Assembly: GCA_014376695.1 (NCBI GenBank)
Contig: JACMRA010000002.1
Location: forward strand, 7,323-71,322
Length of the DNA stretch: 64,000 bases
Direction of reading: 5' to 3'
Source: Minisyncoccota bacterium
Lineage (GTDB): Bacteria > Patescibacteriota > JACMRA01
Shown: piece after piece, positions 12,349 through 62,168 of the stretch
How positions within the stretch are numbered: the first letter of the stretch is position 1
Layout of the letters: the number at the start of each line of letters is the position of its first letter
The notes under the pieces: generated by a model
Database searches by the model: none
What the model was told of the DNA's origin: nothing
What the model saw: the letters and a program-made list of their open reading frames with translations, nothing else
Made by a program: the position numbers and the translations under genes

Positions 12349-12363
12349 CGCGGACTTGATTTT

Positions 12364-19510: not shown

Positions 19511-19864
19511 ATGTTCAAAATTTTATGTCATTTAATCGCTAACATTGCTGTAATTTACATTTTAGCAGGTATTTTTGGGAACTTCATTTTGGGAGACGTG
19601 GTTCAAGTAGGCATTTTTATAGTCGTATTATCTCTACTGAATTGGCTTGTCGTACCTCTTGTCAGACTTATTTCATTTCCGGTAACATTTTTGACCTTTG
19701 GGCTATTTAATATTGTAATAACTTTGCTTGCCGTGCTTACTGCCCTTAATCTGACTAAGGGGGTCTTAATCTATGAGACTGGCATTGCTTATTTTATACT
19801 TTTGATAATTTTGACGCTTGCCCTTTCGCTTAGCAATACTTTGATTAGTAATTTTGTTAAGTAG
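19511..19864 (+). CDS. Four-TM membrane protein, phage-holin-4 superfamily-like (PF04020/YvlD-like)
   Basis: 117 aa. The pattern LSLLNWLVVPLVRLISFPVTFLTFGLFNIVITLL resembles the YvlD/PF04020 LGLVNAIIRPILKLLSLPITILTLGLF core. Confidence 0.6.
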   Translation: MFKILCHLIANIAVIYILAGIFGNFILGDVVQVGIFIVVLSLLNWLVVPLVRLISFPVTFLTFGLFNIVITLLAVLTALNLTKGVLIYETGIAYFILLIILTLALSLSNTLISNFVK

Positions 19865-19868
19865 CTAT

Positions 19869-21362
19869 ATGATTGACCTATCTGATGAAAACGACCTGAA
19901 CACACAACGATCTCTGTTTGTGACGGGCGACGACGGTCAAAGCATCTATGGATTTAGAGGCAGTACGGTCGATCTTATCTTGAACTTCGAAGAATTTTAT
20001 CCAAAAAGCCGTGAAATTATTCTTAATCAAAACTATCGCTCCACGAAGGCAATTTTGGACTTAGCAGAAAAAATCCTCTCTCTCAACCCGAGGCAAAAAT
20101 TCAAAGAATTATTTACAGATAACCCAGACACAAATTTGGATGTCAATTACTATATTGCCCGAAACCATCAAGACGAAGGGCGTTACATTGTACGGCATAT
20201 GTATAATTATTTTGTCCAAAAAGATACCTCTCGCGTCTCCACAATAAACACTGATTTAGGCAAGTCTAATCAGGTGAGGATAGAATCATTCGATGATGAA
20301 TATGTGCGTGAGCAAGCCCAAATCAATAACCGACCAAAATCGGGCATATCCAATATGTTTGATACCTATTTAGAGACCTCCACGACTTCGTTTTCTACTG
20401 GAAATCTCTGGCAAAGTAGCGATAGATTTAATCACTATAATCCTAATAGTTGGAATATCCCAACTGTCGATTGGGAAAAATACACCGGTCTTAATAGTGT
20501 GGCTGTTCTCTATCGAACGCATGCCCAGTCACAGGCATTAGAGGCCGTTTTTAATAGTAATCAATTGCCATACCGGTTAGTTTCAGGGACTAGATTTTTG
20601 GATAGAAAAGAGGTTAAAGACGTAATTTCCATTCTTCGATTTGCTTTTAATAGTCAGGACAAACTGGCCATAGGGCGGTTCCTTCCTTTGATTTTGGATG
20701 GAGTGGGGCCAAAAACTCTCGAAAAAATTATCGCTTTTATGGAGGATAGTAACTATCCCTTGGCACCAAAATATCAAGACCTAGTGACCAAAACATTGGG
20801 ATCTATCAGTCAGGCCTGGTTATCAGATTTTCCATTAATTGATTTTTGTAAGTCGTTGATAGAGAGTTTGGGATATCTTGCCCACCTCAAAAAGAATTAC
20901 CCAGTCAAAGAAGAGTACGATTCAAGGCTCGAAAATATACAAGAATTGTATTCGCTAATGCTTCCATTCGACACCGAGGAGTCAGCTGGCGAACCCCTGT
21001 ACACAAAATTAGGACTATTTCTTGAGCGCGTAAGCCTAATGTCTAATATGGACAACAAGCAGGACGATAACACCCCAAAAATCAACCTTATGACACTCCA
21101 CCAGAGCAAGGGGCTAGAATTTGACATAGTATTTTTAGTTGGTATTGAGGATGGTCTATTACCTCACCAAAATAGCCTGTACGAGCCTAATGGATTGGAG
21201 GAGGAAGTTAGACTGGCTTATGTAGGGGTTACTAGGGCCAAAAAACAATTACATTTAATATCGGCGGAGAGTAGGGTTTTGTTTGGGCAGATTAAAGCAA
21301 TGCCAGTTAGCCGTATATTTAGGCCGTTTCTCGATCGGTACAGCAAGCGCGTAATAGATTAG
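19869..21362 (+). CDS. UvrD/PcrA-family helicase, C-terminal part only (begins at motif II/III; Walker A domain absent)
   Basis: Starts MIDLSDENDLNTQ..LFVTGDDGQSIYGFRGS (degenerate motif II plus motif III). Continues with NYRSTKAILD (motif IV), YRTHAQSQALE, TLHQSKGLEFDIVFL (motif V/VI region) and LAYVGVTRAKKQLHL. An upstream in-frame stop and the preceding membrane-protein gene leave no room for domain 1A. Confidence 0.8.
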   Translation: MIDLSDENDLNTQRSLFVTGDDGQSIYGFRGSTVDLILNFEEFYPKSREIILNQNYRSTKAILDLAEKILSLNPRQKFKELFTDNPDTNLDVNYYIARNHQDEGRYIVRHMYNYFVQKDTSRVSTINTDLGKSNQVRIESFDDEYVREQAQINNRPKSGISNMFDTYLETSTTSFSTGNLWQSSDRFNHYNPNSWNIPTVDWEKYTGLNSVAVLYRTHAQSQALEAVFNSNQLPYRLVSGTRFLDRKEVKDVISILRFAFNSQDKLAIGRFLPLILDGVGPKTLEKIIAFMEDSNYPLAPKYQDLVTKTLGSISQAWLSDFPLIDFCKSLIESLGYLAHLKKNYPVKEEYDSRLENIQELYSLMLPFDTEESAGEPLYTKLGLFLERVSLMSNMDNKQDDNTPKINLMTLHQSKGLEFDIVFLVGIEDGLLPHQNSLYEPNGLEEEVRLAYVGVTRAKKQLHLISAESRVLFGQIKAMPVSRIFRPFLDRYSKRVID

Positions 21363-22558: not shown

Positions 22559-25492
22559 TTATTTTTTTTGTTTGGCTAATGATAGAGACATTGTTAAAGC
22601 TAAGCTAAAACTTGTGGCCATTAACGCGGCCAAACCAAATATGAATCCGATATTATTTCCTGTTTTGGATAGCATACCTGAGGCATTAACCATAATCTTC
22701 TTGCCAGTATCAAAAGTAGATCCGCCGTCAATTCTAGCATTAAGTCCTTGTACACCTAGTTTAGATCCTGTTGGGGTATTGACACAGGTGATTGTTTTAT
22801 CTTTTAGTGTGCAAATACCAGCTGGTTTGGAATCTCCAATTCCGAATAATAATTCTTTTGGAAGGATCTTATTGTCAGGGAGTTGGAAGGTACAAGTGGT
22901 TGTAGAATTTACGGTTACGGCCTTGCCACCGTTGCATTGAATGTCAATGTTCTTGAGATCCCCGATGGTCAAACCGCTCCTTGCAAAGTTTGACTTGACT
23001 CCTGGTAAATCGACATTACCGCCAGCCTTAATCACTCCGTTGGATAAACTTCCAACTGGGCAGTCTCCTGGGACTAATGAGCCTTGAACAGGGGAGAAAA
23101 TACCTAAACTCATCACTCCAGTTATATTACAGCTTGTTCCGTTGCTATATGCGGCTGGACCAGAATAGGTAGAACCAGTAGTTGTAATATATCCACTGAC
23201 TAGCTCGCCTATTTTACCGCTTAGCTCTCCCATAGGGTTTGATCCAAGAGTGGTAGTCGCCGCTTTTAGAGTAACGGGGGCTGAGCTCATCTCCCCGACT
23301 AGGTTTAATTTAGCAGTTTGGCTACCTGGAGTTGCACCGCTGGTTGGAACTTGTGTACATGTTAAACTTGCATTAATTGTACCATTGTTAGAAATTTGAC
23401 ACGGAGTGCTTAAACTATTAGCTGTTGAAATCTGGGCGTTGATCCCTGAAATTGGCATTGCATATGTATTGTTCATTGCGCCTGTCAAAGGAAAGTCACA
23501 TAGAGTAAGGTTCCCGATGGTAATTGTGACTGGTGTACATGTACCGTTGCCAGTTTGATCTGCTGTGATAACTGTGCTCATAGCTGTACCTGCGGCTAGG
23601 TTGATTGGGGCTGAATTGGTTTCTCCGGTTAGATTTAGAGTTGCAGTTTGAGCACCTATGGTTCCACCAAGACTTGGTACGTTGGCACACACAAGAGAGG
23701 CGTTAGGGGTAGCATTATTGAATATTTGACAGTCGGCAGAGCTATTAGTTACTGTGCTTATTTTGGTTTTTATCGGAGCTAGCGGTAGTGTATACTGACT
23801 CATTACATCACCAGTGAGTGGATAGCTACATGTTGTTAAGTTTCCAACGGATATTTGGCTAGGGCTACAAGTGCCGTTGCCGGTATTTGTTTGAGTAATT
23901 TGAGTTCCGTTAGTTATGACAGTCCCAGCTTGTACATTTACAAACCCTTTGTTCATCATCCATTGTACAGTAGGTTGCAAAATAGCAATTTCGCGAGCTC
24001 CTATTTGGGTATTTGATGGAACTGGAATATTGTTACAAGTTAGAGTAGATCCTGATACGGTACATGGATTTGATTTTCCGTAATCTGAGGTAGTATTTCC
24101 ACCTGTTACAAGTAATGCAGCCATTAGTCCTTGACTTGGAAGCGTGTACAGACTTGTAGGTGAACCTGTTAGAGGAAAGCTACAATTAGCAGTAGAGCCT
24201 TGAAGTGCAATGTTGCCTGTTCCACAATTACCAGTTCCAACATTAGAATTGGATATGGTAGTGCTGTATCCACATTGAGCAGGACTTAAAGTAAAGCTTT
24301 TTGGTGACCCATTCAATAATGGATTGGTCACATAAGCTGGAGCATCAATCCCGTATGCATACAAAGTATGTGGGTTATTGTCACAGTAAGCTTCTGGAAT
24401 TCTAAAGTCGTAGCCATTTTTACCAGTGTTGTATGGAGCTGGTAAATCAGGTCGTACATAGCTAGCTGTAGTTTTGCCGATATATGTTCCATTTGATGTT
24501 GATCCGTCGATATAAAAATGTACATCAAGTGAAGTATTAGGAACATCTGCGTCAGTAGCCCAACCGCTGGCAACGCCAGTACTGGAAATACCATCTAACC
24601 AGCCATCAGGGGAGTTAGAGGTTATAGTTGCTGGGGTGGACAGTGTAGTGCCAACGACAGCAGCTGGCCTAGGAGTAGCAGGGATGCAGAGAGTCTCAGC
24701 TTCGGCATCTCCGCCATTTAAATCAGTTGCGTAAAGCTCGACAAAACCAAGCGTGTTACAGTCTTTTGGTCGGTATCCTGTACTATAAGCAATGGATTGT
24801 AGGCCTGCCGTTGGTGTTCCGTATTTCATACAGAGGGAAGTCAACGCTGGGTTAGAATCCAAATTATGGAATCCTTTGGCCGGTATCATGTAAACTCCGT
24901 ATCCTTGTGGACATGCTCTTGCATTTGTAAGTGCTCCGTATGTAGCGCCGCCGTAACTACCACTTGAAGCTGTGACTGTTGCGACTTGGCACATTTGATT
25001 TTGGACTGTATCATTGGCAAAATTATTCATTATGTTTTCATATTCATTACCCTGACCCGCTAATCCGCTGTAAACATATGAACCATCTTGTTGCCCGACT
25101 GGAGTTGTACCAGTATTAAGTGCATTAACACCAGGGCATCTTCCCATCACGAAGATATTAGGCTTACTGGTACAAAGACCTTGGCTAAATGCTTGATTCC
25201 CGACATAATATGGCTGCATTACTCTGGTTCCGTTAGCTCCATTACAAGGAAATAGGCCGTACTGACTGCTAGTACAATTGCCGCCTATTGGGGCAGAGTT
25301 ATCCAGACAAACTGTTGCTGTACAGTTAGTGCCTGCAAGCACACTCCCCGCTGGACAGGAATACACTGGAGCAGCTTGAGTGCTGATGCTAGTACTAATG
25401 CCAGTAACTAGGCCAAATAGCGAAAAAACCATACCGAGCGCTGCAAAAGAACGTGATAGAGCGAGATTTATATTTTTTTGTTTGGATGACAT
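22559..25492 (-). CDS. Large secreted cell-surface protein with repeated four-cysteine modules and LPXTG-like C-terminal sorting signal
   Basis: 977 aa with a signal peptide (ALGMVFSLFGLVTGISTSISTQA). Four modules of about 105 aa are present (e.g. TGNGTCSPSQISVGNLTTCSYPLTG...DCQIFNNATPNASLVCANVP; TGNGTCTPVTITIGNLTLCDFPLTG...PCQISNNGTINASLTCTQVP). The C-terminus is LSKTG, a hydrophobic stretch (IGFIFGLAALMATSFSLALTMSL), then KQKK. Confidence 0.7.
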   Translation of the reverse strand: MSSKQKNINLALSRSFAALGMVFSLFGLVTGISTSISTQAAPVYSCPAGSVLAGTNCTATVCLDNSAPIGGNCTSSQYGLFPCNGANGTRVMQPYYVGNQAFSQGLCTSKPNIFVMGRCPGVNALNTGTTPVGQQDGSYVYSGLAGQGNEYENIMNNFANDTVQNQMCQVATVTASSGSYGGATYGALTNARACPQGYGVYMIPAKGFHNLDSNPALTSLCMKYGTPTAGLQSIAYSTGYRPKDCNTLGFVELYATDLNGGDAEAETLCIPATPRPAAVVGTTLSTPATITSNSPDGWLDGISSTGVASGWATDADVPNTSLDVHFYIDGSTSNGTYIGKTTASYVRPDLPAPYNTGKNGYDFRIPEAYCDNNPHTLYAYGIDAPAYVTNPLLNGSPKSFTLSPAQCGYSTTISNSNVGTGNCGTGNIALQGSTANCSFPLTGSPTSLYTLPSQGLMAALLVTGGNTTSDYGKSNPCTVSGSTLTCNNIPVPSNTQIGAREIAILQPTVQWMMNKGFVNVQAGTVITNGTQITQTNTGNGTCSPSQISVGNLTTCSYPLTGDVMSQYTLPLAPIKTKISTVTNSSADCQIFNNATPNASLVCANVPSLGGTIGAQTATLNLTGETNSAPINLAAGTAMSTVITADQTGNGTCTPVTITIGNLTLCDFPLTGAMNNTYAMPISGINAQISTANSLSTPCQISNNGTINASLTCTQVPTSGATPGSQTAKLNLVGEMSSAPVTLKAATTTLGSNPMGELSGKIGELVSGYITTTGSTYSGPAAYSNGTSCNITGVMSLGIFSPVQGSLVPGDCPVGSLSNGVIKAGGNVDLPGVKSNFARSGLTIGDLKNIDIQCNGGKAVTVNSTTTCTFQLPDNKILPKELLFGIGDSKPAGICTLKDKTITCVNTPTGSKLGVQGLNARIDGGSTFDTGKKIMVNASGMLSKTGNNIGFIFGLAALMATSFSLALTMSLSLAKQKK
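22690..24260 (-). repeat. Intragenic tandem repeats encoding the four-Cys modules (about 330-nt period for the central copies)
   Basis: Module starts are seen at about 24250 (NVGTGNCGTG), 23890 (TNTGNGTCSP), 23560 (DQTGNGTCTP) and 22950 (IQCNGGKAVT). Conservation is at protein level, and the DNA copies have diverged. Confidence 0.5.
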
Positions 25493-35838: not shown

Positions 35839-36519
35839 ATGCCTTTTGTGATTCAGTCAGGTTCAAAACAATATACAGTAACCCCAGGACAAAAATTTGT
35901 AGTAGATAGACTAAAGAATGACTTAGGAGAAGTTGTCGAACTTCCATTAGTCTACAGCTACGGAACAACAAAGGGAGCCACTTCCGTCCAAGCCAAAGTC
36001 GTACTCCACCAAAAAGGAAAGAAAATTCGAGTAGTTAAATACAAGAACAAAAATAACTATCATAAGCAATCAGGATATCGACACTATGAAACTATCTTAG
36101 AAATTCTCGGCGATAAAGAAGCGGTAGTCGCTCCAGCCAAAGTCAAAGCTGAGAAAATTGAGAAAGTTGCAAAAGATTCTGTTGAGGTAGTCGAGCCAGT
36201 TAAAGCTGTAAAAACAGCAGCAAAGACTGTAACTAAAGAAACCGTAAAGAAGTCCCCAGATAATTCCGATGATCTAAAGAAAATCGAGGGAATTGGAGCA
36301 AAAATTGAAGAAATCATAAAAGCTGCTGGGATAAATACCTATTCAGAACTAGCCGCAGCCAGTGAGGAAACTCTCAAAGAGATTCTTAGCGGCGCAGGTC
36401 CACGGTATTCTATTCATAATCCTTCATCTTGGCCTAATCAAGCATCTTTGGCTCGCGACGAGAAGTGGGACGAATTAGCAGCCCTTCAAAAAGAGCTTAA
36501 CGGCGGTAAAGTTGAATAA
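35839..36519 (+). CDS. rplU: 50S ribosomal protein L21 with about 130-aa C-terminal extension containing a helix-hairpin-helix-like domain
   Basis: The first ~95 aa are L21 (MPFVIQSGSKQYTVTPGQKF...KIRVVKYKNKNNYHKQSGYRHYETILEI). A Lys/Ala/Val-rich linker follows. The tail reads DDLKKIEGIGAKIEEIIKAAGINTYSELAAASEETLKEILSGAGPRYSIHNPSSWPNQASLA. Confidence 0.85.
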   Translation: MPFVIQSGSKQYTVTPGQKFVVDRLKNDLGEVVELPLVYSYGTTKGATSVQAKVVLHQKGKKIRVVKYKNKNNYHKQSGYRHYETILEILGDKEAVVAPAKVKAEKIEKVAKDSVEVVEPVKAVKTAAKTVTKETVKKSPDNSDDLKKIEGIGAKIEEIIKAAGINTYSELAAASEETLKEILSGAGPRYSIHNPSSWPNQASLARDEKWDELAALQKELNGGKVE

Positions 36520-37535: not shown

Positions 37536-38726
37536 ATGACAGTCCTTAACATCCGCCAAAACGAAATATATAGTGAAAACCTTACCTTTATTCAAGAATT
37601 GATTAATGGATCTCCTCAGTTATTAGATTTATCAGTTTTCCCTTTTGAACTTGGTCAAGTCCTAATGCAACTCCCCTCCCCAAAGCTTAAATTAGTCGCC
37701 AAAGAGCTTGCAGGAGCCACCGATCTCTACAAAAATCCCGAGCAATTACAGCAACTACTTAGTGAGTTAGAGCTTGAAAATGTCGAAAACTTAGCCAATG
37801 GAGAAGGCTTATATCAGGGACATTTAGAAACATTAACTAAGACAATCGCTGAAGAAGTAGATGGTCAAACCGAATTACTAAACCAATTAAACAATCTCAC
37901 TTTTTTCTATCGTTCCCTTGGCTACGCTCTATATAGTCAACTTAGCCATCAAGTAACGTTGGACGCTGCTTTGAAAAACTTTGGGATTATTACTTTTAAG
38001 ATTGGTCTACTTGGTTTTATAAACGCTCGACTCGGTAAAAATTTAGGTGATTATTACGTCAGAAAAACCTTTGATATCGCAATTGAATGGGCTAGTCAAA
38101 ATCAAATGACTTTGGTGCATAGATTTGGGGTCAAAGGCAGCATCCTTATTGTTGATAGAACTCTCGAAGGGCTGACAAAAGAGAGGAACCAAGCAATTGA
38201 AAAGTCGTTCAAAGATTATGTAGGTAGCAAAATAAAAGATCTAATGTCCGAAAAATTAGAAGAATATAATTTTGACTTTGAACCAATGATTGTCACAGGG
38301 ACAGCGACCATTCACACGGCCATAAGTAATCTAAAAATTAGCAAAACTAGCACGCGAAATAAAACTTATTTTGAAATCTCAAAAGTTATTGGGGATCTTT
38401 GCCATTTTTTGTGTGATGCTAGAATTGAAAAAGAAACCAAAAAAGTTCATTCAATTTGGCTGGAAAAAGGTGGCGATACATCTAAATTCCTAACAAAAGA
38501 GTCTGATAACAAAATTCTAAATGCTCAATTACCCAAATTTCTGGAGGGGAATCGCAAAAATAATATCTCTTTTCTTAATTATTTATACCAGCAGAGTATT
38601 TTTTTGAATGCTCAAATTGCCAATAGTACAGATGGGGAATTGACAAAATATTTTAAAGAACGGAAGGGTGAGGGTTTTATTCGCTCGGGAGTAATCTTGG
38701 CCGATCTTCAAAGGTTAAGAGGTTAA
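37536..38726 (+). CDS. Ribonucleotide-reductase-large-subunit-like protein, N-terminal half, active-site residues degenerate
   Basis: KIGLLGFINARLGKNLG aligns to RNR GIGINAGRIRALGSPI/GGIGFxFSxLRPxG. QNQMTLVHRFGVKGSILIVD aligns to QGGVRGGAATLFYP. QIANSTDGEL sits at the position of the SNLCLEI/TNPCGE radical-Cys finger loop, with Cys replaced. The start (ATG 37536 versus TTG 37422) is uncertain. Confidence 0.4.
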   Translation: MTVLNIRQNEIYSENLTFIQELINGSPQLLDLSVFPFELGQVLMQLPSPKLKLVAKELAGATDLYKNPEQLQQLLSELELENVENLANGEGLYQGHLETLTKTIAEEVDGQTELLNQLNNLTFFYRSLGYALYSQLSHQVTLDAALKNFGIITFKIGLLGFINARLGKNLGDYYVRKTFDIAIEWASQNQMTLVHRFGVKGSILIVDRTLEGLTKERNQAIEKSFKDYVGSKIKDLMSEKLEEYNFDFEPMIVTGTATIHTAISNLKISKTSTRNKTYFEISKVIGDLCHFLCDARIEKETKKVHSIWLEKGGDTSKFLTKESDNKILNAQLPKFLEGNRKNNISFLNYLYQQSIFLNAQIANSTDGELTKYFKERKGEGFIRSGVILADLQRLRG

Positions 38727-38831
38727 TATGTCAAAAAACTGCCTAAAATAGCTTGACTTAATCTCAAAACTTAATTAGAACTCTTTCAGTCCTTGTGCGC
38801 ATAGCTATTTCTAATTACCAGCTACTTTTTT

Positions 38832-41678
38832 ATGAACTCTCCAAAGAACTCTAATTTTTATCAAGATAAAGTATATCAATTACTATCAAAAGTAGCTAGA
38901 ACCGAGCCAACCGTTGAGTTAGAGCTGTATTGGCTTAAGCGTTATCAAGAAATCACCCAAAACCTAAGCTTTAGCCTGAGTGAGCATACCGTGGAAATGG
39001 CCTTTGAAGACATAGTTACACGACCAAGTACTCCTAGCGGACTGATTAATATAGAACAGATAATTGACGACAAAAATCAAATCCAAGAAGCTAACCTTCA
39101 AAATATTATAGAAACAGCGATCCGTTTACTAGACGCTATCTTGGATATAATTAATTTTGATGATGTTGCCAAAAAAACCGTTAAGGAATTTCGCAAAATT
39201 GCCATTGGCATTGAGAATTTAGATAGCTATTTAACAATCCCTGAGCTACTGATTGACCAAGTAGATTACCTAGGCGAGTTGATAAGTAATAGTGTTTATC
39301 GAGCCTCGGAGTCGCTAGCTGAAGAGAAAGGAGCCTGCCTTCGATGGGAGGATATCAAAAGCGAAATAAGTTCAAAAAGCTTCGAATACTGGTTTAATCC
39401 TGATAGTGGCGAAATTCGAACTAGCCTTGAAATACAAGAATATATCAATAACAATCCGGAATCACGGCCTAAAATTATGGGCGAGTTTGAGATTGTAGCA
39501 CGACGCGGTAGCCATTTGTTATTATATGCCAATACTCCAGAATGGTTAAAATGGTCAGATCGAAAGCCCTCTCAATCACCGCCAGCTGGCGAATCTAATA
39601 TCGGGAATGAAGAAATCGAGGACGAGCTTGCCTTGGAAATTATTGACGAGCCTATCGAATCTGAGTCGGAAGATGAAATTCAATCAGAAATTCAATCTGA
39701 GCTTGAAGCCACGGTAGAAGATGAGATAGAATCGGAGGAGGAGATTAAAACAATATTAAAAGATGAACAAATTGAATTACCAGAGTTCCTCCAAAAAAGT
39801 GCCCCTCTAGTAACTCCAACAGCTCTAATTGACCAGGAAAAGCTGAGCTCAAGTTTGGCTCAAGAAATAGACTCGCTTAATCAGCACATCATTAAGGTAA
39901 ATTCATCAAAACCAATTACGAATACCAATGACGCACCTGTTTCCAAGCTCGGAAAAGACCATAGTAAAAATTTTGCGTTTCCTGATATGATTGATATGGA
40001 AGACATTTTGCCAGGTTTGATAGGTGATACAAAAAAATGGGACAAAGATGAGGACGATTTTAATAGTATTTTTGGACTGGGTAAACTGACCACTCACCCC
40101 GTAAAGCCAAATAACAGCAAGGCGCAAATTCAACAGATTGAAGAAGGTCGGGTTCAGCCAATAAAGGTGGAAATGGCTAAAGATCAAGAAATGGTTAAAA
40201 ACCAAGAAACTGACTCCGAAAACCAAACCCCTTTACCTACCGAAGAGATTTCGGGAGCTGAGATTGCCGAAGAAGATTTGGAAATTGCTAAAATTTTACC
40301 ACAGATTACAACTATTTTTGGAATAGGGGAACTGGTCAAGGTCATATCGACAAGTGGAGTTTCTGATTTTTATCAGATTGTAGAAATTTTACTTGATAAT
40401 AATATACTATGTTACCATCTTACTGATCGGGACGATGCTCAAGTTGTCAAGATTTGTTCGGAGGGCGAAATACAGCCGGCCTTGCTCGAAGAATTAATTC
40501 TGTCAGCCAATATCGGTACTAGAATTAAGAATAATGAGACCGAGGAAAACAATATCCCCGAAATAACTCAAGATAAAGTCGAGGTCAAGCCCGTGAGCGA
40601 GTACTTTGCGCAAGCAATTGTCTTTAATCAAAATGGCCAAGTGTTGCTTTCTGGTGATAATTTGCCGCAGATTCTCATACCGCAAGATGCAAGTAATGCA
40701 GAAACTCTGAATAATTATTTGGCAAATAGCCACAATATTGCCATCAAAGATGTTGAGGAGATTGGGACATTTGCTAGCGACGATTGCATTAAGACAATTT
40801 TTTTGGGGCAGTTAGATGATGAGTCTAATCAAACTAAAGCCTTAGGTTTATCCGTTGTAGATATTGATCAGGCTCTGGTTCTAGTACCTAATCTTGAAAA
40901 GTACCTATCCAAAGCATCCGAAAAAGAGATGCAGGCCAAGAAAAGGTTTGCTCAATTAAACAACCAGCTTAAAATCGCGGTTGGTGAAAATCAAAACCTC
41001 AAGCAAAAAATTCGATTGCTAGGCCTAAATTTGCAAGTAATTGCAGACGAAAATGGCGGTAGTCGCGTAGGTGATTCGAACAATATCCAAAAAGCAATCA
41101 ACACTCGAGGAGATTATAAATATTTACATATTACCGAACATTCAAGGTTTTCCAAATTCTTTCCGGTGATTGAACAGGTGATTGAAGATGATGAAATTGG
41201 TAAAATTACTCTCAATATCCAGTACGATAGTTTCGGGGCCAAAAAAGCCTCTATTGTAGTAGATAGCGAGAAGCTTCGGGATAAAGACTATACGCTTTTG
41301 ACTAGTTATCTTAATTTGGTCAATACTTCACTGGCTAGTGGAGCTAGTCTTGCCGATGTGTCTTACGTACTTGAGCATCAGGGAAAAGGTAAGCTGGATT
41401 TTGGGAATAATTTAATTAATAAGATTTTATTGATACTGTCGCTGTGTTTCTTAGCGATGCCGCGATCTATCGAACAGATTAATTCCTCCGATATAATTAT
41501 TGTAACACTGGCTAAGGTGCTCGATTCGCTAAATCGTAATCAATCGTTATTGGAAATTGTCCTAGAGGATGACATCCGACCGGAGAGCAAAACAGAGGTT
41601 ATTAGTCATTCTAATCAATCGGCCGCGGAGAAATCAAGTCCAAAAAGTAGCCGCTTCCAAAAAAAAGCTAGAATCTAA
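38832..41678 (+). CDS. Ribonucleotide-reductase-large-subunit-like protein, C-terminal half, with a roughly 500-aa acidic/novel insertion
   Basis: TPSGLINIEQI...AIRLLDAILDIINF...FRKIAIGIENLDSYL...ASESLAEEKGACLRWE parallels E. coli NrdA LCTLSAFNL...AVRALDALLDYQDY...RRTLGIGVINFAYYL...ASNELAKEQGACPWFN. The conserved Cys is replaced. An acidic repeat follows (ESESEDEIQSEIQSELEATVEDEIESEEE). The C-terminal block is GKITLNIQYD...LLTSYLNLVNTSLASGASL. Confidence 0.45.
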   Translation: MNSPKNSNFYQDKVYQLLSKVARTEPTVELELYWLKRYQEITQNLSFSLSEHTVEMAFEDIVTRPSTPSGLINIEQIIDDKNQIQEANLQNIIETAIRLLDAILDIINFDDVAKKTVKEFRKIAIGIENLDSYLTIPELLIDQVDYLGELISNSVYRASESLAEEKGACLRWEDIKSEISSKSFEYWFNPDSGEIRTSLEIQEYINNNPESRPKIMGEFEIVARRGSHLLLYANTPEWLKWSDRKPSQSPPAGESNIGNEEIEDELALEIIDEPIESESEDEIQSEIQSELEATVEDEIESEEEIKTILKDEQIELPEFLQKSAPLVTPTALIDQEKLSSSLAQEIDSLNQHIIKVNSSKPITNTNDAPVSKLGKDHSKNFAFPDMIDMEDILPGLIGDTKKWDKDEDDFNSIFGLGKLTTHPVKPNNSKAQIQQIEEGRVQPIKVEMAKDQEMVKNQETDSENQTPLPTEEISGAEIAEEDLEIAKILPQITTIFGIGELVKVISTSGVSDFYQIVEILLDNNILCYHLTDRDDAQVVKICSEGEIQPALLEELILSANIGTRIKNNETEENNIPEITQDKVEVKPVSEYFAQAIVFNQNGQVLLSGDNLPQILIPQDASNAETLNNYLANSHNIAIKDVEEIGTFASDDCIKTIFLGQLDDESNQTKALGLSVVDIDQALVLVPNLEKYLSKASEKEMQAKKRFAQLNNQLKIAVGENQNLKQKIRLLGLNLQVIADENGGSRVGDSNNIQKAINTRGDYKYLHITEHSRFSKFFPVIEQVIEDDEIGKITLNIQYDSFGAKKASIVVDSEKLRDKDYTLLTSYLNLVNTSLASGASLADVSYVLEHQGKGKLDFGNNLINKILLILSLCFLAMPRSIEQINSSDIIIVTLAKVLDSLNRNQSLLEIVLEDDIRPESKTEVISHSNQSAAEKSSPKSSRFQKKARI

Positions 41679-50819: not shown

Positions 50820-52814
50820 CTAATACCCCTTAATCACCCGCTCGATTTGATTTGACCAATAAATTTTGGTTTGAGCTTGGTTGTCGTCCATATTTTCTTT
50901 GGTGATTATGCTTTTGAGCAGGACTTTTCGACGCTTCTTTGGCAATTCGATATGGTCAATCCCGGCTAAGAATCGCCCTGTTGGTGAGTTATTGTTTTTG
51001 ATAATTTCTTGCGGGGTTCCAGTCGCAACAATCTGACCGCCGTTTATACCAGCTTTTGGTCCGACATCAACGATATAGTCACTGTTCATAATGGTTTCTT
51101 CGTCGTGTTCGACCACCAAAACCGTGTTACCAAGGTCTCGCAGTTTTTTGAGCGTGTTAAGCAGCTTAGTGTTGTCTCGTTGATGTAAGCCAATAGATGG
51201 CTCATCAAGGATGTAAAGAACACCCGTCAAGCCTGACCCTATCTGAGTGGCAAGCCTAATACGTTGAGCTTCTCCGCCTGACAAAGTGTCGGCGCTACGT
51301 GAGAGAGTAAGATATTCGAGGCCTACATCTTGGAGGAATTTGAGGCGGATTTCCACTTCTCGAAGAATCATTCGAGAAATTTCAGCTTCGGTCTTAGTTA
51401 GGCTAGTGCCCGTTCGAAGAGCTGTAAACCATGCCAAAGCGTCCTTGATTGATAAGTGGACAATATGATTAATTGATTGGCCACTCAGAGTTACTGAGAG
51501 AGCTTCTGGCTTAAGTCTGGCTCCTTTACAGTCGGGGCAGGCTTTTTTATTCATATAGCTTTCTATATCTCGGCGGGCTGCGTCAGAAGTTGTGTCTTTG
51601 TAGCGTCTTTTTAGATTAATTATTATCCCCTCGAAGCTTTCGTTACCGTAAAGAACGATATCACGGACTTTTTGAGGTAGTTTGTTCCAGGGTTGCTCTA
51701 GTTCAAAATTATATTTAACCGACAGGGTTTGAAAAGTCTTAGTCAGCCATCCGCCGCTCAAGCTCATACGAGAGATAGGTTTGAGACACCCTTCTAAGAT
51801 ACTCAAGGTCTCGTTAGGTACAATCAGCTTATCGTCAATTTCTGTGATTACGCCAAGGCCGTTACAAGTGGTACAAGCTCCGTGGGGGCTGTTGAAACTA
51901 AAGAGTCTTGGTTCGAGATTATCTGGAGTTCCGTGTCCATTTGGGCAGGCTCGGTTTTTATTGACGTGAATTAATTGCTTGGACTTATCTTCTTCTTCTA
52001 TTTTGAAAATCAGGGCTTTGCCATTACTGTATTTCATTGCTGTCTCTAGCGAGTTCATTAGCCGAATTTTGTTATCGTCGTTGAGAGTGACTCGATCTAT
52101 GACTACTTCAATAGTGTGTCTGAGCTGCTTGCTAAGTTGAATTTTTTCGGCTTCCTCGATTAAGATTATGTCACCATTGACCCGAATCCTTCTAAAGCCA
52201 TTCTTTTTTGCCTCGCTAATATGTTGCTTATGAACACCTTTTTGATCAGTTACTACTGGGGACAGAACGATAACCGTCTTGCCGTCCAATTCCTTAATAA
52301 GTCGACTGCAGATACTGGTTACTGATTCGTTGGCAATTACAGCATCACAAACCGTGCAGTGTTGCTGTCCTATTTTGGCGAATAAAAGACGTAAATAATC
52401 GTATATTTCGGTGATTGTCCCGACCGTAGAGCGTGGATTTTGAGATGTAGATTTTTGATCGATAGAAATAGCGGGGGATAGGCCGTCAATGGACTCAACA
52501 TCAGGTTTTTCTTTTAGGCCGAGGAATTGACGTGCGTACGAACTTAGGCTCTCGACGTAGCGACGCTGGCCTTCAGCGTAAATTGTGTCAAAAACTAAGC
52601 TAGATTTACCGCTGCCGGATAGACCACTAAAAACAACTAATTTGTTCTTTGGGACAATTACCGAAACATTCTTGAGATTATGCTCTTTGGCTCCCCGTAC
52701 TGTTATATAAGAGTTTGGATTAGGGACAAAGGTTGTATTAGCAAGGATTTCTGGCGAATTTAGCTCGGCTAATGTTAGGTTATTTAGATGATTTAGTTCG
52801 GAGATAGTCGTCAT
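50820..52814 (-). CDS. uvrA: Excinuclease ABC subunit A, first ATPase module only (C-terminal NBD-II missing)
   Basis: ITVRGAKEHNLKNVSVIVPKNKLVVFSGLSGSGKSSLVFDTIYAEGQRRYVESLSSYARQF, zinc modules, LSGGEAQRIRLATQIGSGLTGVLYILDEPSIGLHQRDN and VVEHDEETI are present. The ORF ends at 664 aa (UvrA is about 940 aa), just where the second Walker A should begin. Confidence 0.85.
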   Translation of the reverse strand: MTTISELNHLNNLTLAELNSPEILANTTFVPNPNSYITVRGAKEHNLKNVSVIVPKNKLVVFSGLSGSGKSSLVFDTIYAEGQRRYVESLSSYARQFLGLKEKPDVESIDGLSPAISIDQKSTSQNPRSTVGTITEIYDYLRLLFAKIGQQHCTVCDAVIANESVTSICSRLIKELDGKTVIVLSPVVTDQKGVHKQHISEAKKNGFRRIRVNGDIILIEEAEKIQLSKQLRHTIEVVIDRVTLNDDNKIRLMNSLETAMKYSNGKALIFKIEEEDKSKQLIHVNKNRACPNGHGTPDNLEPRLFSFNSPHGACTTCNGLGVITEIDDKLIVPNETLSILEGCLKPISRMSLSGGWLTKTFQTLSVKYNFELEQPWNKLPQKVRDIVLYGNESFEGIIINLKRRYKDTTSDAARRDIESYMNKKACPDCKGARLKPEALSVTLSGQSINHIVHLSIKDALAWFTALRTGTSLTKTEAEISRMILREVEIRLKFLQDVGLEYLTLSRSADTLSGGEAQRIRLATQIGSGLTGVLYILDEPSIGLHQRDNTKLLNTLKKLRDLGNTVLVVEHDEETIMNSDYIVDVGPKAGINGGQIVATGTPQEIIKNNNSPTGRFLAGIDHIELPKKRRKVLLKSIITKENMDDNQAQTKIYWSNQIERVIKGY

Positions 52815-58141: not shown

Positions 58142-59908
58142 CTAGAGTAAATTACTATTTTTAATATCAAGAATTTCAGGTATGATAATTTTCTTTAAAT
58201 ATTTATCAACTGATTTTTTAAATTCTGCATTTTTAGTGAACCTTGGAGCGTTTGAGATTATACTAGGCATTTCTTGTACCTTTTTTTTCCAAGCAGGTAA
58301 AAATATTTCGGTTGCACAAACCTTTACAAAGTCTCGGAGGTGATTTTTAATTATAGCCTCTAAAGCATTAAGTCGCTCACTCGGTTCAATCAATGTAATA
58401 ATCCGCGAATTTAAAATGTACAGAAAATAGTACCTAGAGTGTTTAAGTATACTTTCTAAACCTTTATTGGCGCTTTTTTGTTCATTACCACTCAGTAATT
58501 CATATGCTACATTTTCAATAATCTTTTTCTTATCCAATTCTAAGAACATTTGCATTACTAAGTAGTACTCTTTTAGATCGTCTTCCGGTATCTCATCATC
58601 ATCTTTTATATTTAGGATCTCGTCTGGGAATATTGTGGAAAACTTGCTTTGATTATCAAGCTCAATTTTAAACAGTGCGGCTTGACCTTTTTTTGCAATT
58701 TCGGGGAAACCTTTATAAGCTGTATAAGCAAGGATAAAATCTGTAAATTTAACTTTATGCCGAATTGTTAAATTTTGAAATTGTTCGGGTAGCTTTATGC
58801 CTGATTTATATTCTAAATCAATGTAACCATCTCCGCATTGTAGGAAGTATATCCTAATGACGCTCCAAAGTGGTCTATTTGAATAAAACTGCCATAAGTC
58901 TATCTTATTTTGACTATTAGTAAATTTAACAATATTTTCAAGAATATCTGAGTTTTTTTCGATAATTAAAATTTTTGCCAATACTGATACTTTTTCTCGT
59001 TGCATTTTTATAGCGTTTTTAATTGAGTGAATTGTTTGCGCTCCGTTTACTACTTGAGGATTTTCTAGTTTATAAGAGCCTTGATTTTCTGTAACAGAAG
59101 TGCAGACAATTGTAATCCCGTTATTGTAAAACCAGAACAATTCCGGAGTTTCATTAACTGTCATTGTAATATTTTTGTTAATCTTACTATTCCCGAGACC
59201 GAATCTAATATTTTCATCGAAATATTCTTGATCGGATAGCTTGATTACATCAGTACCACTCATAGTCATAATATGAGCTTTATATTTATCATCTTGAGTT
59301 TTATAATCAAATTTTGACATCTTACCTTTATCGACAAAACTGACCATAATCGGCGCTACAGATCCATTTAACTTTCTTAAAATTGATTGCTCACTATAAA
59401 CATTGACATCAATAATTTCACTTCCTTCAATGACGTTATTTAGCTCATCTTGGAAGTCCTTCATTTTAATTTCACCGCAATTAGTTATATATATGTATAT
59501 AATTTTATTACATTCATTAAAATAAGTATATAAATTAGCATCGAGATAGTTTTTTCGGCTTTCAGCCCATTTATTTCTTGATTTTACGGTACTTAATTTT
59601 TCTACGAAATCAATAGAATCTGACTTTTCTTCACTTTGTAGATCTCGTAACTCGCTATTATTTTTATATTTACCCTGATATATTCTAAGGATTTTTTCCT
59701 CATCATTGTAATAGTACGCATCGATACCGCAGTCATTCTTACGGCCACATAATAAATTTTCAATATCTTCTAAATCTTCCTCCGGGATAATGTCATTTTC
59801 AATATTTTTTAAAAACCATTTCACAAATGTATTACCTTGTTCTGTCGTGTTTTTGTTTGTAGAAAAATTTTTATATGCTTTGTCGATGATTTCAATTAGT
59901 TTGCTCAT
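58142..59908 (-). CDS. AIPR-family abortive-infection protein
   Basis: Start at ATG (MSKLIEIID). N-terminal nuclease-like block CGIDAYYYNDEEKILRIYQGKY. Central VVNGAQTIHSI motif, characteristic as I recall of PF10592. Lies 7 nt upstream of the HEPN gene. Confidence 0.65.
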   Translation of the reverse strand: MSKLIEIIDKAYKNFSTNKNTTEQGNTFVKWFLKNIENDIIPEEDLEDIENLLCGRKNDCGIDAYYYNDEEKILRIYQGKYKNNSELRDLQSEEKSDSIDFVEKLSTVKSRNKWAESRKNYLDANLYTYFNECNKIIYIYITNCGEIKMKDFQDELNNVIEGSEIIDVNVYSEQSILRKLNGSVAPIMVSFVDKGKMSKFDYKTQDDKYKAHIMTMSGTDVIKLSDQEYFDENIRFGLGNSKINKNITMTVNETPELFWFYNNGITIVCTSVTENQGSYKLENPQVVNGAQTIHSIKNAIKMQREKVSVLAKILIIEKNSDILENIVKFTNSQNKIDLWQFYSNRPLWSVIRIYFLQCGDGYIDLEYKSGIKLPEQFQNLTIRHKVKFTDFILAYTAYKGFPEIAKKGQAALFKIELDNQSKFSTIFPDEILNIKDDDEIPEDDLKEYYLVMQMFLELDKKKIIENVAYELLSGNEQKSANKGLESILKHSRYYFLYILNSRIITLIEPSERLNALEAIIKNHLRDFVKVCATEIFLPAWKKKVQEMPSIISNAPRFTKNAEFKKSVDKYLKKIIIPEILDIKNSNLL

Positions 59909-60034
59909 AACTTTGAATTTCAAATTTATTATAGTGAACTATAATTCCAATTAACACTAAAAGTCAAGCTCATAATTCAGACTGTTTGTGTAAAAAAGCT
60001 AGTACCAGTTATAGTAATCCTCCTTTATAATAAC

Positions 60035-60928
60035 CTAATCATTCTTCAGCACATTTAAGAATACATCGTTTGGGATATTGACATTTGCAAATTGCTTCAT
60101 ACGCTTTTTGCCTTCTTTTTGCTTGTCTAGGAGTTTCATGCGGCGTGAGACATCTCCACCATAAAGTTTGGCAGTTACATCTTTTCGAAATGGCTTGACG
60201 GTTTCGCGGGCTATTACTCGGGACCCTATTACCGCTTGGATGGCTACTTCTACTTGTTGGCGAGGGATTAGTTCTTTGAGTTTGGTGCAGATTTTGCGCG
60301 AGAGGGCTTCGGAGTTGGCTTTGTGACTTATGGTACTTAGCGGTTCGATTAGCTTGCCGTTAAGGAGGACATCGACTTTTACGAGATTGGATTTCTTGTA
60401 TTGGCTTACTGAGTAGGACATTGAGGCGTAACCTTTTGTGCCTGATTTGAGCTGGTCATAGAAATCAATAATTACTTCACCTAGTGGGATGCTGGCCACA
60501 ATCTGGATTTGACCTAGCGATAGGCTGTTCATAGCAAGCACTTCACCTCGGGCAGTGTTGATTAGCTCAATCACCTTACCAGTAAAGTCATTTGGTGTGA
60601 TAATACTCATCTCGAGATACGGCTCGTAGATAGCCAGGATATTGCTCGGATCAGGTAAATCGGTCGGAGTCTTAACACTGGTAAAGTTGTTTTTGTCGAT
60701 GTCTTTGACATTGATTTGGCTCTGGGAGATGCCTCCGAGTTCTGGTGCTAATATTTCGACTAAAGTCTCTTGCTCATCGGGCGCGGGGTAGTAGTTATTA
60801 ATTAACTCCTTAATTAGACTGAGCCTAGCCTCGGGTCTGATTGGTTGGGTTAGGATTTCTTTGATTTTTGGGTCGAGGTTACTAAGTTCTAAGAACTCCT
60901 TGAATTGTTTGCGTTGGTCGATGGTCAT
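60035..60928 (-). CDS. lepA: Elongation factor 4 (LepA) C-terminal half only (domain V + LepA_C); GTPase domain absent
   Basis: YEPYLEMSIITPNDFTGKVIELINTARGEV, DFYDQLKSGTKGYASMSY, LIPRQQVEVAIQAVIGSRVIARETV and LYGGDVSRRMKLLDKQKEGKKRMKQFANVNIP are near-identical in pattern to EF4 residues about 400-599. The first ~90 aa are at most a degenerate domain III. Confidence 0.85.
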   Translation of the reverse strand: MTIDQRKQFKEFLELSNLDPKIKEILTQPIRPEARLSLIKELINNYYPAPDEQETLVEILAPELGGISQSQINVKDIDKNNFTSVKTPTDLPDPSNILAIYEPYLEMSIITPNDFTGKVIELINTARGEVLAMNSLSLGQIQIVASIPLGEVIIDFYDQLKSGTKGYASMSYSVSQYKKSNLVKVDVLLNGKLIEPLSTISHKANSEALSRKICTKLKELIPRQQVEVAIQAVIGSRVIARETVKPFRKDVTAKLYGGDVSRRMKLLDKQKEGKKRMKQFANVNIPNDVFLNVLKND

Positions 60929-61025
60929 AGGTTTTTAGTTGATAAAGTTTAGAATTAAGTGTATATTTTAATTATAAATTCCCGTTAGGGACGACCCTCA
61001 ACAAAATGAGGGGTTAATTTTTACC

Positions 61026-61523
61026 CTAATGAATTGTTATTAGTGTAAGATAACTTTCTTCTTTAGCAACTTTGAGGATATTCTTAACTTCTTCTAGATC
61101 ATTAATAAAAGGGTTTAATAATTCTTGTGTCCAGATATGATCGTATGGATAAATACCACACTGATTTACAAGTTCAAGATTGGGGTAAGTCTGACTCTCT
61201 ACACTTTGGAAATAACTATAAATATCTTGGATGTGGGTGGCATTGAGGATATGGGCAATACCATCATAGTCAAATTTTTTCAAATTAATTCTATTTTCAC
61301 CAAAAAAAAGCTTAGTTTGAACAGGTAAATCAAAGGGATACTTACCATTTTTCAATCGATCTCTATACTTATGATTGACCAAAAAATCTAAAATATCATG
61401 AGATTTGTAAAATGTAAAACTATTGTCTTTACTATAGAATATAGAATCTAAATACTCCAAAGTCATATTTGTGTGATCGACTCCTTGATCTTTTATTAAT
61501 TGAAAAGTTATGCTAATAGACAT
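61026..61523 (-). CDS. YfbM/DUF1877-like protein
   Basis: 165 aa. CGIYPYDHIW...ESYLTLITIH parallels E. coli YfbM MEIYPGVTF...GNHALTVIVG. The length is similar. Confidence 0.45.
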   Translation of the reverse strand: MSISITFQLIKDQGVDHTNMTLEYLDSIFYSKDNSFTFYKSHDILDFLVNHKYRDRLKNGKYPFDLPVQTKLFFGENRINLKKFDYDGIAHILNATHIQDIYSYFQSVESQTYPNLELVNQCGIYPYDHIWTQELLNPFINDLEEVKNILKVAKEESYLTLITIH

Positions 61524-61534
61524 AAAAATAAATC

Positions 61535-62038
61535 TTAAATTATCCCATCAATAAAACCATATTCCAATGCCTCTTTTGGTCCAAAAGGGTTTTCTCCACT
61601 TGTTAATTCAGTCATAGTCTCATCACTTAATTTTGTTTTATGAAATAAGTACCCATCCCTAAATAATTTATCTCTAGCTTCTTTAGCGATAATTTTGTCT
61701 ATGTGATCAGTTTTTCCTTGTAAGCCAAAACCGCTACTGTGGGTTAAGAAAGTTGTAAATTTAGTTGCATATCTTTTATGCCCAGATTGCAGGACATATA
61801 CTGCCGCAGATGCACATTGTCCAATTACAACTGTATGAATTGGTTTTGGTGAAGATTCGATAAAACTACCAATAAGCCTCCACGTGCCGTTTCCACCATT
61901 GCAATCAATAAGAATCTCTATCAACTTGACTGACTCGTCTAAAATGGCTAACTCAATTTCTTTACAGATTTTAATAGCAAACGGTCCTGTTATAGTTTCG
62001 ATTAACCAGATTTTTTTGGTACTTGGGTTGAAGTTCAT
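61535..62038 (-). CDS. ClpP-family (S14) serine-protease-like protein, short form
   Basis: Start at ATG (MNFNPS). ILIDCNGGNG (ClpP INSPGG), VVIGQCASAAVYVLQSG (GQAASMG, Ser retained), FLTHSS (MIHQP, His retained) and KEALEYGFIDGI (EAxEYGLID). The third catalytic Asp is not evident. Confidence 0.65.
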   Translation of the reverse strand: MNFNPSTKKIWLIETITGPFAIKICKEIELAILDESVKLIEILIDCNGGNGTWRLIGSFIESSPKPIHTVVIGQCASAAVYVLQSGHKRYATKFTTFLTHSSGFGLQGKTDHIDKIIAKEARDKLFRDGYLFHKTKLSDETMTELTSGENPFGPKEALEYGFIDGII

Positions 62039-62168
62039 ATACACATACAATTACACTTTTATAATTTCTGTGCAACCTCGTTTTTTGTTGATTTGACAGA
62101 ACGGTGAAATATATTTTATATTAGGTTAAATAAGAGTATAACAAGCAATTAAATCAATCAGTTTTTCT

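Follow-up and report, generated by a model that had tools for sequence, protein, structure and literature searches.

We analysed two adjacent open reading frames, ORF1 and ORF2, in a stretch of 64,000 nucleotides (the window) of contig JACMRA010000002.1 from a Minisyncoccota bacterium (assembly GCA_014376695.1). A preliminary description, made from the sequence of the window, had interpreted the two ORFs together as a split gene for the large subunit of a ribonucleotide reductase (RNR) with a degenerate active site. Another explanation appears to us the probable one: ORF2 is a single complete gene encoding an internally gutted class II RNR, which now serves as a non-enzymatic scaffold or sensor, and ORF1 is unrelated to it. 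Sequence comparisons indicate that ORF2 represents a real, uncharacterised family of RNR-derived pseudoenzymes under strong purifying selection. Both ORFs are long and intact, and all the peptide strings quoted in the preliminary description were found where it had placed them. The positions of all features are given in Table 1.

ORF2 gave a significant match to the Pfam model of the RNR barrel, PF02867, with an E-value of 3.4e-8 and a score of 33 bits (gathering threshold 23.9). The match paired residues 71-187 with positions 231-354 of the 523 in the profile, whereas a true RNR, P0116, matched this model of a 10-stranded barrel from position 2 to position 523. PF02867 was also matched by 34 of 39 members of the ORF2 family, and the NCBIfam model NrdJ_Z (TIGR02504) matched ORF2 with an E-value of 2.9e-7, far under its equivalog cut-off. 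When the N-terminal parts of 96 family members were compared by hhalign with 10 intein-free RNRs, the probability was 99.9% and the E-value 5.6e-32; the pairing joined residues ~66-240 of ORF2 to residues 321-496 of P0116 only. The blocks TPSGLINIEQI, AIRLLDAILD, FRKIAIGIENLDSYL, ASESLAEEKGACLRWE and RRGSHLLLYANTPEW of ORF2, which had been picked out by eye as RNR-like, align to the barrel in the PF02867, TIGR02504 and hhalign comparisons. The barrel fragment so defined runs from the strand of the second active-site cysteine, at Thr67, to the RRN strand, and terminates in a family-specific motif, EWxxWSDR. We did not adopt the view that this motif (EWLKWSDR in ORF2) descends from the last barrel strand (QxWVDxSISKT), a pairing that appeared only as hhalign match 3 with a probability of 0.3%.

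In searches with the family profile, true RNRs ranked after the family itself. The closest were P0116, P0125, P0127 and P0129, with E-values from 6e-25 to 7e-11, and these proteins bear the motifs TNPCGE, ACNLGS and PRRNSTVLSIAPTGS. Their clade-specific insert GNKFE(S/R)W is represented by SKSFEYW in ORF2, and the PRRN strand is also common to both. P0116, which is 67% identical to a gene of an Aphanocapsa sp. genome, is by Pfam a complete enzyme, with Ribonuc_red_lgN (PF00317) at residues 17-75, the barrel at 84-628 and a TSCPD domain at 699-787. An AlphaFold2 (AF2) model of ORF2 was confident only per domain (mean predicted local distance difference test score, pLDDT, 54.7; predicted template-modelling score, pTM, 0.31); in it the RNR fragment comprised residues 8-225, with pLDDT of ~70-87 over residues 10-130. 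The profile comparisons thus indicate that ORF2 belongs to the RNR superfamily by homology and descends from a class II, NrdJ-type RNR bearing a TSCPD domain.

The N-terminal end of the ancestral enzyme was also recognisable. The first 62 columns of the family alignment paired with residues 35-71 of P0116, in its all-alpha domain, with an hhalign probability of 89% and an E-value of 2.2e-6, as against 0.25% for a reversed control. The remnant carries the motif E-x-T-x-E-L-x-x-Y-W-x-x-R-Y; among the 96 members E25 is invariant, W34 is present in 95 and T27 in 92. In 15 of 18 family ORFs, taken from different loci, a hidden Markov model (HMM) of true RNRs independently matched two pieces in colinear order, with model positions ~26-69 at residues ~3-54 and positions ~265-419 at residues ~48-233. 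W34 and G70 are separated by 35-39 residues in 91 members (36-37 in 81 of these) and by 21 residues in the other five, compared with ~270 in P0116. None of the 96 members contains NPC in its first 150 residues, where the TNPCGE finger loop with the thiyl-radical cysteine was sought.

Two strings, TEPTVE (residues 24-29) and SEHTVE (residues 50-55), were considered as relics of TNPCGE and rejected, as they received zero hhalign confidence. HMMER extended one alignment, that of P0131, to such a placement; hhalign instead put residues 17-53 on the RNR N-terminal domain, and the radical loop is therefore treated as deleted, not mutated. The strand with the first active-site cysteine is deleted as well. 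The second active-site cysteine, in the CNLGS strand, is Thr67 in ORF2 and threonine in 84 of the 96 members. The proposal that the catalytic cysteines had been replaced is thus correct for the CNLGS strand, and incorrect for the radical loop. ORF2 has five cysteines in total, none of them in the tail, where the re-reducing C-terminal pair would lie. Because ORF2 lacks the radical loop, the two cysteines of the active site, the phosphate loop (APTGS), most strands including the last ones of the barrel and any redox cysteine pair, it cannot form a 10-stranded barrel or reduce nucleotides. Since it holds both ancestral ends, the N-terminal remnant and a TSCPD-like C-terminus (below), the alignments indicate that the ancestral RNR was gutted from inside by a deletion of ~250 residues, and not cut in two.

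The closest full-length RNRs, P0125, P0129 and P0131, carry inteins whose insertion point is precisely the finger loop (TNPC / intein / CGE), and this site falls within the segment deleted in the ORF2 family.

The C-terminal block of ORF2, which had also been considered RNR-like, appears to be a TSCPD-like domain. The family profile matched residues 695-758 of P0116, inside the Pfam TSCPD domain of that enzyme (E-value 2.3e-14). With the TSCPD segment of P0116 as query, family C-termini were recovered from a set of 161 sequences with E-values of 1e-8 to 1e-3. Alignment revealed a beta3-plus-helices core common to the P0116 domain and the family C-termini, and AF2 predicted a domain of three strands plus helices at residues 779-875. 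Direct searches with PF12637 gave no match for ORF2, and a match in one of 39 members with an E-value of 0.0029. In the family alignment the TSCPD motifs GKxGxD, GIGG and SxPD and the conserved cysteines are all replaced. Stand-alone proteins of 110-210 residues (P0117-P0128) contain nothing beyond the TSCPD-like domain found at the family's C-terminus, and at locus L014 a separate ORF of 181 aa (11947-12492), directly 3′ of a shortened family gene, clusters with the family. Some lineages may thus have split the ORF2-type protein.

Where the APTGS loop and the final strands of the barrel would lie, between the barrel fragment and the TSCPD-like domain, ORF2 instead has a linker followed by a small beta-barrel, then a Nudix fold and a coiled coil. 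The insertion of about 500 residues previously ascribed to ORF2 therefore did not enter an intact barrel; it took the place of the last barrel strands. Residues 226-493 were disordered in the AF2 model; this linker is 24% D+E, has an isoelectric point (pI) of 4.1 and is rich in indels in the family alignment. It does contain the acidic repeat that had been reported, though the repeats are small (12 nt in 1.9 tandem copies and 18 nt in 2.2). The small beta-barrel has strands at residues 501-549 and a conserved GELV motif, and resembles SH3/KOW domains by shape only; by sequence, single family members gave weak matches to PsaE or EFP_N.

The domain that follows had been described as possibly Nudix-like and motif-less, and both parts of this description were borne out. 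AF2 predicted an alpha/beta domain at residues 590-687. Foldseek comparison of the ORF2 model with the PDB gave 32 matches with E-values of 1e-3 or less, nearly all to Nudix folds (E-values 1.5e-4 to 1e-3 for the best), headed by the effector domain of AraR and the C-terminal domain of MutY, both non-catalytic, and followed by MutT and ADP-ribose pyrophosphatases. Pfam NUDIX was matched by none of 39 family members. In place of the Nudix box, GX5EX7REUXEEXGU, ORF2 has LPQILIPQDASNAETLNNYLANSHNI, which lacks the G, RE and EE residues, and the family consensus at this site retains only LP...PE..L. The long helix and the tail that flank the TSCPD-like region are basic, and ORF2 overall is strongly acidic, with a pI of 4.55.

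The extent of the family was determined by an exhaustive HMMER search with a profile of 10 family sequences, in which counts are of representatives at 50% identity. This search found 297 proteins with E-values of 1e-3 or less and 99 with E-values of 1e-30 or less, and so revealed the true size of the family, for which word-index searches had given just 11 clusters. The N-terminus is common to the family, whose members start within residues 1-8 of their proteins, and an N-terminal half-barrel was found in none of them. Among species-representative genomes the family occurs in metagenome-assembled genomes (MAGs) of Patescibacteria labelled Paceibacterota, Saccharibacteria, Peregrinibacteria and SR1; the nearest locus (61% identity) is in a Paceibacterota MAG, and two more family-bearing MAGs, labelled otherwise, may be mis-binned. 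No copies were found on viral contigs, which yielded only ordinary phage RNRs. The source annotation of the family proteins is only 'hypothetical protein', and we found no published description of this bacterial family in the literature.

Selection was assessed as the ratio of non-synonymous to synonymous substitution rates (dN/dS), calculated against the relative L037 (92% amino-acid identity), and the values are included in Table 1. The ratio of 0.11 for ORF2, falling to 0.035 in the RNR fragment, and the ~99 clusters uphold the earlier suggestion that, as far as ORF2 is concerned, a non-catalytic pseudoenzyme has been retained.

Table 1. Features of the ORF1-ORF2 locus, with window positions and dN/dS relative to L037
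Feature	Position	Strand	dN/dS	Description or basis
ORF1	37536..38726	+	0.07	396 aa from ATG; lineage-restricted, function unassigned; not RNR-like
Spacer	38727..38831	+		105 nt, four in-frame stop codons
ORF2	38832-41678	+	0.11	948 aa, RNR-derived
RNR N-terminal all-alpha remnant (PF00317-type), aa 17-53	38880..38990	+		hhalign, RNR HMM
RNR barrel fragment, aa 66-245	39027..39566	+	0.035	PF02867, hhalign, AF2, dN/dS
Acidic disordered linker, variable length, aa 246-493	39567..40310	+	0.205	pLDDT <50
Small beta-barrel, aa 494-560	40311..40511	+	0.07	SH3/KOW-like by shape only; AF2 strands 501-549, pLDDT 60-78
Nudix-fold domain without Nudix box, aa 585-687	40584..40892	+	0.11	Foldseek; pLDDT ~75-85
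Long basic helix, probable coiled coil, aa 688-740	40893..41051	+		AF2 helix; pI 9.9
Coiled-coil region, aa 701-776			0.03	
TSCPD-like domain (NrdJ-type RNR C-terminal domain), aa 777-890	41160..41501	+	0.04	family profile, P0116 segment search, alignment
Basic tail, poorly ordered, plus stop codon, aa 891-948	41502..41678	+		AF2, composition
DnaX, neighbour for comparison			0.12	

ORF1 and ORF2 are two separate genes, because the short spacer between them contains four in-frame stop codons. These are, in order, TAA, TGA, TAA and TAG, and their number and their three kinds ruled out read-through or recoding that would fuse ORF1 to ORF2. No matches to ORF1 were found in Pfam, NCBIfam or the PDB. 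Against the RNR profile hhalign gave a probability of 0.13% for ORF1 and 0.22% for reversed ORF1; with all HMMER filters off, the RNR HMM scored ORF1 at -2.6 bits, within the range of 20 shuffles, and concatenation of ORF1 with ORF2 brought no gain against this HMM (67.6 versus 69.0 bits). The string QIANSTDGEL, previously assigned to the position of the radical-cysteine loop, is thus a chance resemblance in a protein without RNR similarity. The AF2 model of ORF1 was poor (pLDDT 44.8) and mainly helical with a short sheet, and Foldseek with this low-confidence model found ferredoxin-like folds at a best E-value of 0.1 and no RNR.

The word-index search for relatives of ORF1 yielded 3 clusters, all of close relatives, and the gene lies 5′ of ORF2 only in near relatives (L004/L007 and L037). 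At 15 other family loci it is missing and the upstream genes differ; these include Fmt, in L001 and L016, and an unknown divergent gene in L006, L009 and L013. Residues 245-372 of ORF1 (38268-38651) matched a thermonuclease-like protein of L017 (3721-4464, minus strand), whose gene adjoins the ORF2 homologue in a Saccharibacteria MAG, with STRNKTYFEISKVIGD against STKNKRLFEVTKVIDGD; at 12 bits this match is probably due to chance, and kinship of the two proteins was rejected. The low dN/dS of ORF1 indicates a real gene, and the comparisons indicate one that is clade-specific, unrelated to ORF2 and merely upstream of it.

The idea that ORF1 and ORF2 are halves of a degenerate RNR, which reassemble a complemented barrel as a two-chain pseudoenzyme, has in its favour that the genes lie side by side, with one direction and one reading frame, that the pair is retained in three close relatives and that both genes are under purifying selection. 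We nevertheless consider it very unlikely. By Pfam, NCBIfam, PDB, hhalign and unfiltered HMM searches ORF1 has no RNR signal and equals its shuffled and reversed controls; it is missing beside 15 other family loci, its mostly helical model, of low confidence, matches no RNR fold, and the spacer is closed by stops. ORF2, moreover, already has the RNR N-terminal remnant. The split-pair reading is therefore for the most part refuted, and a 10-stranded barrel complemented from these two proteins is not possible.

The origin of ORF2 can be set out from these comparisons. In the ancestor of the Patescibacteria-restricted family, an internal deletion of ~250 residues joined the all-alpha remnant directly to the second half of the barrel. 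Lost with it were the strand of the first active-site cysteine, the loops for substrate and effector, and the finger loop TNPCGE of the thiyl radical. Other domains took the place of the APTGS loop and the final strands, and the TSCPD-like domain lost its cysteines. The product probably acts as a non-enzymatic scaffold or sensor. Its RNR remnant and TSCPD-like domain, two of its most constrained parts, probably keep their intramolecular docking, by analogy with NrdJ enzymes; this is plausible because the two belong to docking partners in NrdJ. In the split enzyme of P. aeruginosa, NrdJb docks on NrdJa in the vicinity of its C-terminus and of the cofactor-cleft rim (PMC4520616). The Nudix-like domain, which most resembles Nudix domains that sense ligands and do not hydrolyse them, probably binds a small nucleotide-like ligand and leaves it intact. 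The long helix suggests oligomerisation of ORF2, probably through the coiled coil.

Several observations count against this account. The match of the N-terminal remnant spans just 37 aligned columns, and ORF2 lies under every Pfam threshold for TSCPD and NUDIX. With a model confident only per domain (pTM 0.31), the docking of the TSCPD-like domain on the RNR fragment is a proposal, and ligand binding by the Nudix-like domain is probable on analogy only. No conserved neighbourhood was found around the family genes among 18 loci, so that gene context gives no pointer to function.

Other roles for ORF2 were weighed against a scaffold or sensor. As a regulator or decoy, it would bind the resident RNR or thioredoxin through its barrel surface and TSCPD-like module, with the Nudix-like domain sensing (d)NTP-related ligands. 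This would suit the strong constraint on the retained pieces (0.035 and 0.04), the docking of TSCPD-type modules on NrdJ (PMC4520616) and the non-catalytic Nudix domains of AraR and MutY as best fold matches. We regard it as unlikely, although the strongest of these competitors: the part of the barrel that forms dimers is deleted and the redox cysteines are gone. In addition, no true RNR gene was found within 10 kb of any family locus, and none among the large ORFs scanned in the window, the small ORFs not having been checked. A slightly less likely role is that of an accessory factor in DNA replication or repair, in which contacts with DNA or the clamp-loader would be made by the SH3/KOW-like barrel, the Nudix-like domain of MutY type, and the coiled coil and tail, both basic. 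The dnaX gene lies directly 3′ of the family gene in the window, in L004/L007 and in L037, and within 10 kb of it in L001 and L016; the MutY C-terminal domain is among the best fold matches, and the helix and tail are basic. Linkage to dnaX within 10 kb, however, holds in only 4 of the 18 loci, the protein as a whole is strongly acidic, and Pfam searches gave no match to a DNA-binding family.

Completion of the half-barrel of ORF2 in trans, by a protein encoded elsewhere, would yield an active reductase, and split NrdJ enzymes do exist (PMC4520616). This is highly improbable, as ORF2 has neither the radical loop nor the phosphate loop, and is also devoid of the two active-site cysteines and of the final strands; in known splits the break comes after the barrel and not within it (PMC4520616), and no partner was found near any family locus. 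Least probable of all, to a degree that we regard as negligible, is that the similarity arose by chance or that the locus is an RNR pseudogene in decay. The Pfam model is passed by a mere 118 residues of ORF2, which might suggest as much, but the 948-codon frame is intact and selected, 99 clusters with E-values below 1e-30 have the same architecture and the hhalign E-value is 5.6e-32, so that this reading is already refuted.

The preferred reading of ORF2, as an internally gutted class II RNR, can be compared with known systems. With NrdJ enzymes that carry TSCPD, of which P0116 and P0127 are the nearest relatives, ORF2 shares the domain order, from all-alpha N-terminus through barrel to TSCPD, the barrel helices and strands from CNLGS to the PRRN strand, the FE(x)W insert and the motif ASE(x)LA(x)EKG(x)C. 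It differs from them in the absence of ~250 residues (with the TNPCGE loop and the first cysteine strand), in the threonine at the second cysteine, in the ~530 residues of other domains that replace the APTGS loop and last strands, and in a TSCPD-like domain that is motif-less and lacks the C-terminal cysteine pair. The split NrdJa/NrdJb enzyme of P. aeruginosa is likewise encoded by adjacent co-directional genes, with a C-terminal RNR module on the second; there, however, both chains are RNR-derived and active together, and the split follows a complete barrel (PMC4520616), whereas here ORF1 has no kinship with RNR, and the two ancestral ends are both on ORF2, with the middle removed. The AraR effector domain of Bacteroides and the C-terminal domain of MutY, which Foldseek ranked as the closest matches to residues ~585-700 of ORF2, also lack the hydrolase motif, but ORF2 has no relation to them at the sequence level and no winged helix-turn-helix or glycosylase partner domain.

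The nearest functional analogy is with the R1 homologues of betaherpesviruses, which are derivatives of the RNR large subunit that have lost activity and been kept for another role; human cytomegalovirus (HCMV) UL45 and murine cytomegalovirus (MCMV) M45 are catalytically inactive (PMC5469499). The viral proteins differ from ORF2 in their origin from a eukaryotic-type class I enzyme and in their new roles in host signalling. Such inactive R1 homologues retain a full-length barrel, whereas ORF2 is bacterial, of class II origin, and has a barrel fragment only, fused to Nudix-like and other domains. Large surveys of RNRs keep full barrels only, and one of them mentions no inactive bacterial relatives (10.1101/2022.04.23.489257).

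In the window, ORF1 and ORF2 are preceded by genes for FtsH, ribosomal protein L21 and an FKBP isomerase, and followed by genes for DnaX, a cupin, YibE_F and an amine oxidase. The L21 protein (35839-36519, plus strand; L21 at residues 4-89) has a C-terminal extension of ~130 residues with a helix-hairpin-helix, HHH_5, at residues 144-182. Elsewhere, a 728-aa protein (12364-14550, minus strand) is an unusual fusion of a full sigma-70 (regions 1.2-4, residues 281-541) with a C-terminal TsaE (residues 588-696). A UvrA-like protein (50820-52814, minus strand) of just 664 aa, with UvrA_inter, UvrA_DNA-bind and one ABC domain, is far shorter than canonical UvrA, and its short length is conserved in the close relative L037 (10702-12696). 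A UvrD-like ORF of 502 aa (19854-21362, plus strand) retains the last ~30 residues of the N-terminal helicase domain and UvrD_C, and may be truncated or split. At 58142-62050 (minus strand), an AIPR abortive-infection gene (58142-59923) lies in a stretch of low GC content (0.305) and adjoins an ORF (60035-60928) for the C-terminal half of LepA only (EFG_C and LepA_C); the N-terminal part of LepA may survive, broken, in the small ORFs 61026-61523 and 61535-62050. Two large ORFs, at 131-2749 (plus strand, 872 aa) and 22559-25492 (minus strand, 977 aa), had no Pfam match with an E-value of 1e-5 or less.

RNR is generally treated as an essential and indivisible catalytic barrel; here a fragment of it persists without an active site, and selection on ORF2 is as strong as on the neighbouring replication gene, across ~100 diverged clusters of Patescibacteria. 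RNR-derived pseudoenzymes are thus not confined to herpesviruses, and partial matches to PF02867 in Patescibacteria genomes should not count as evidence of an RNR in metabolic reconstructions. The family offers a tractable case in which to ask which sub-structure of the RNR barrel folds and is useful alone. A more specific proposal, which we put forward as tentative, is that this family, so far seen in Patescibacteria only, recycled the non-catalytic shell of a B12-type RNR (N-terminal helices, a quarter of the barrel and TSCPD) together with a silent Nudix fold into a new nucleotide-sensing regulator or scaffold. If so, we know of no earlier description of an RNR-derived pseudoenzyme from bacteria, and this one would have three folds of nucleotide metabolism repurposed in one protein, and such a regulator might tune the supply of deoxynucleoside triphosphates or replication in these nucleotide-scavenging organisms.

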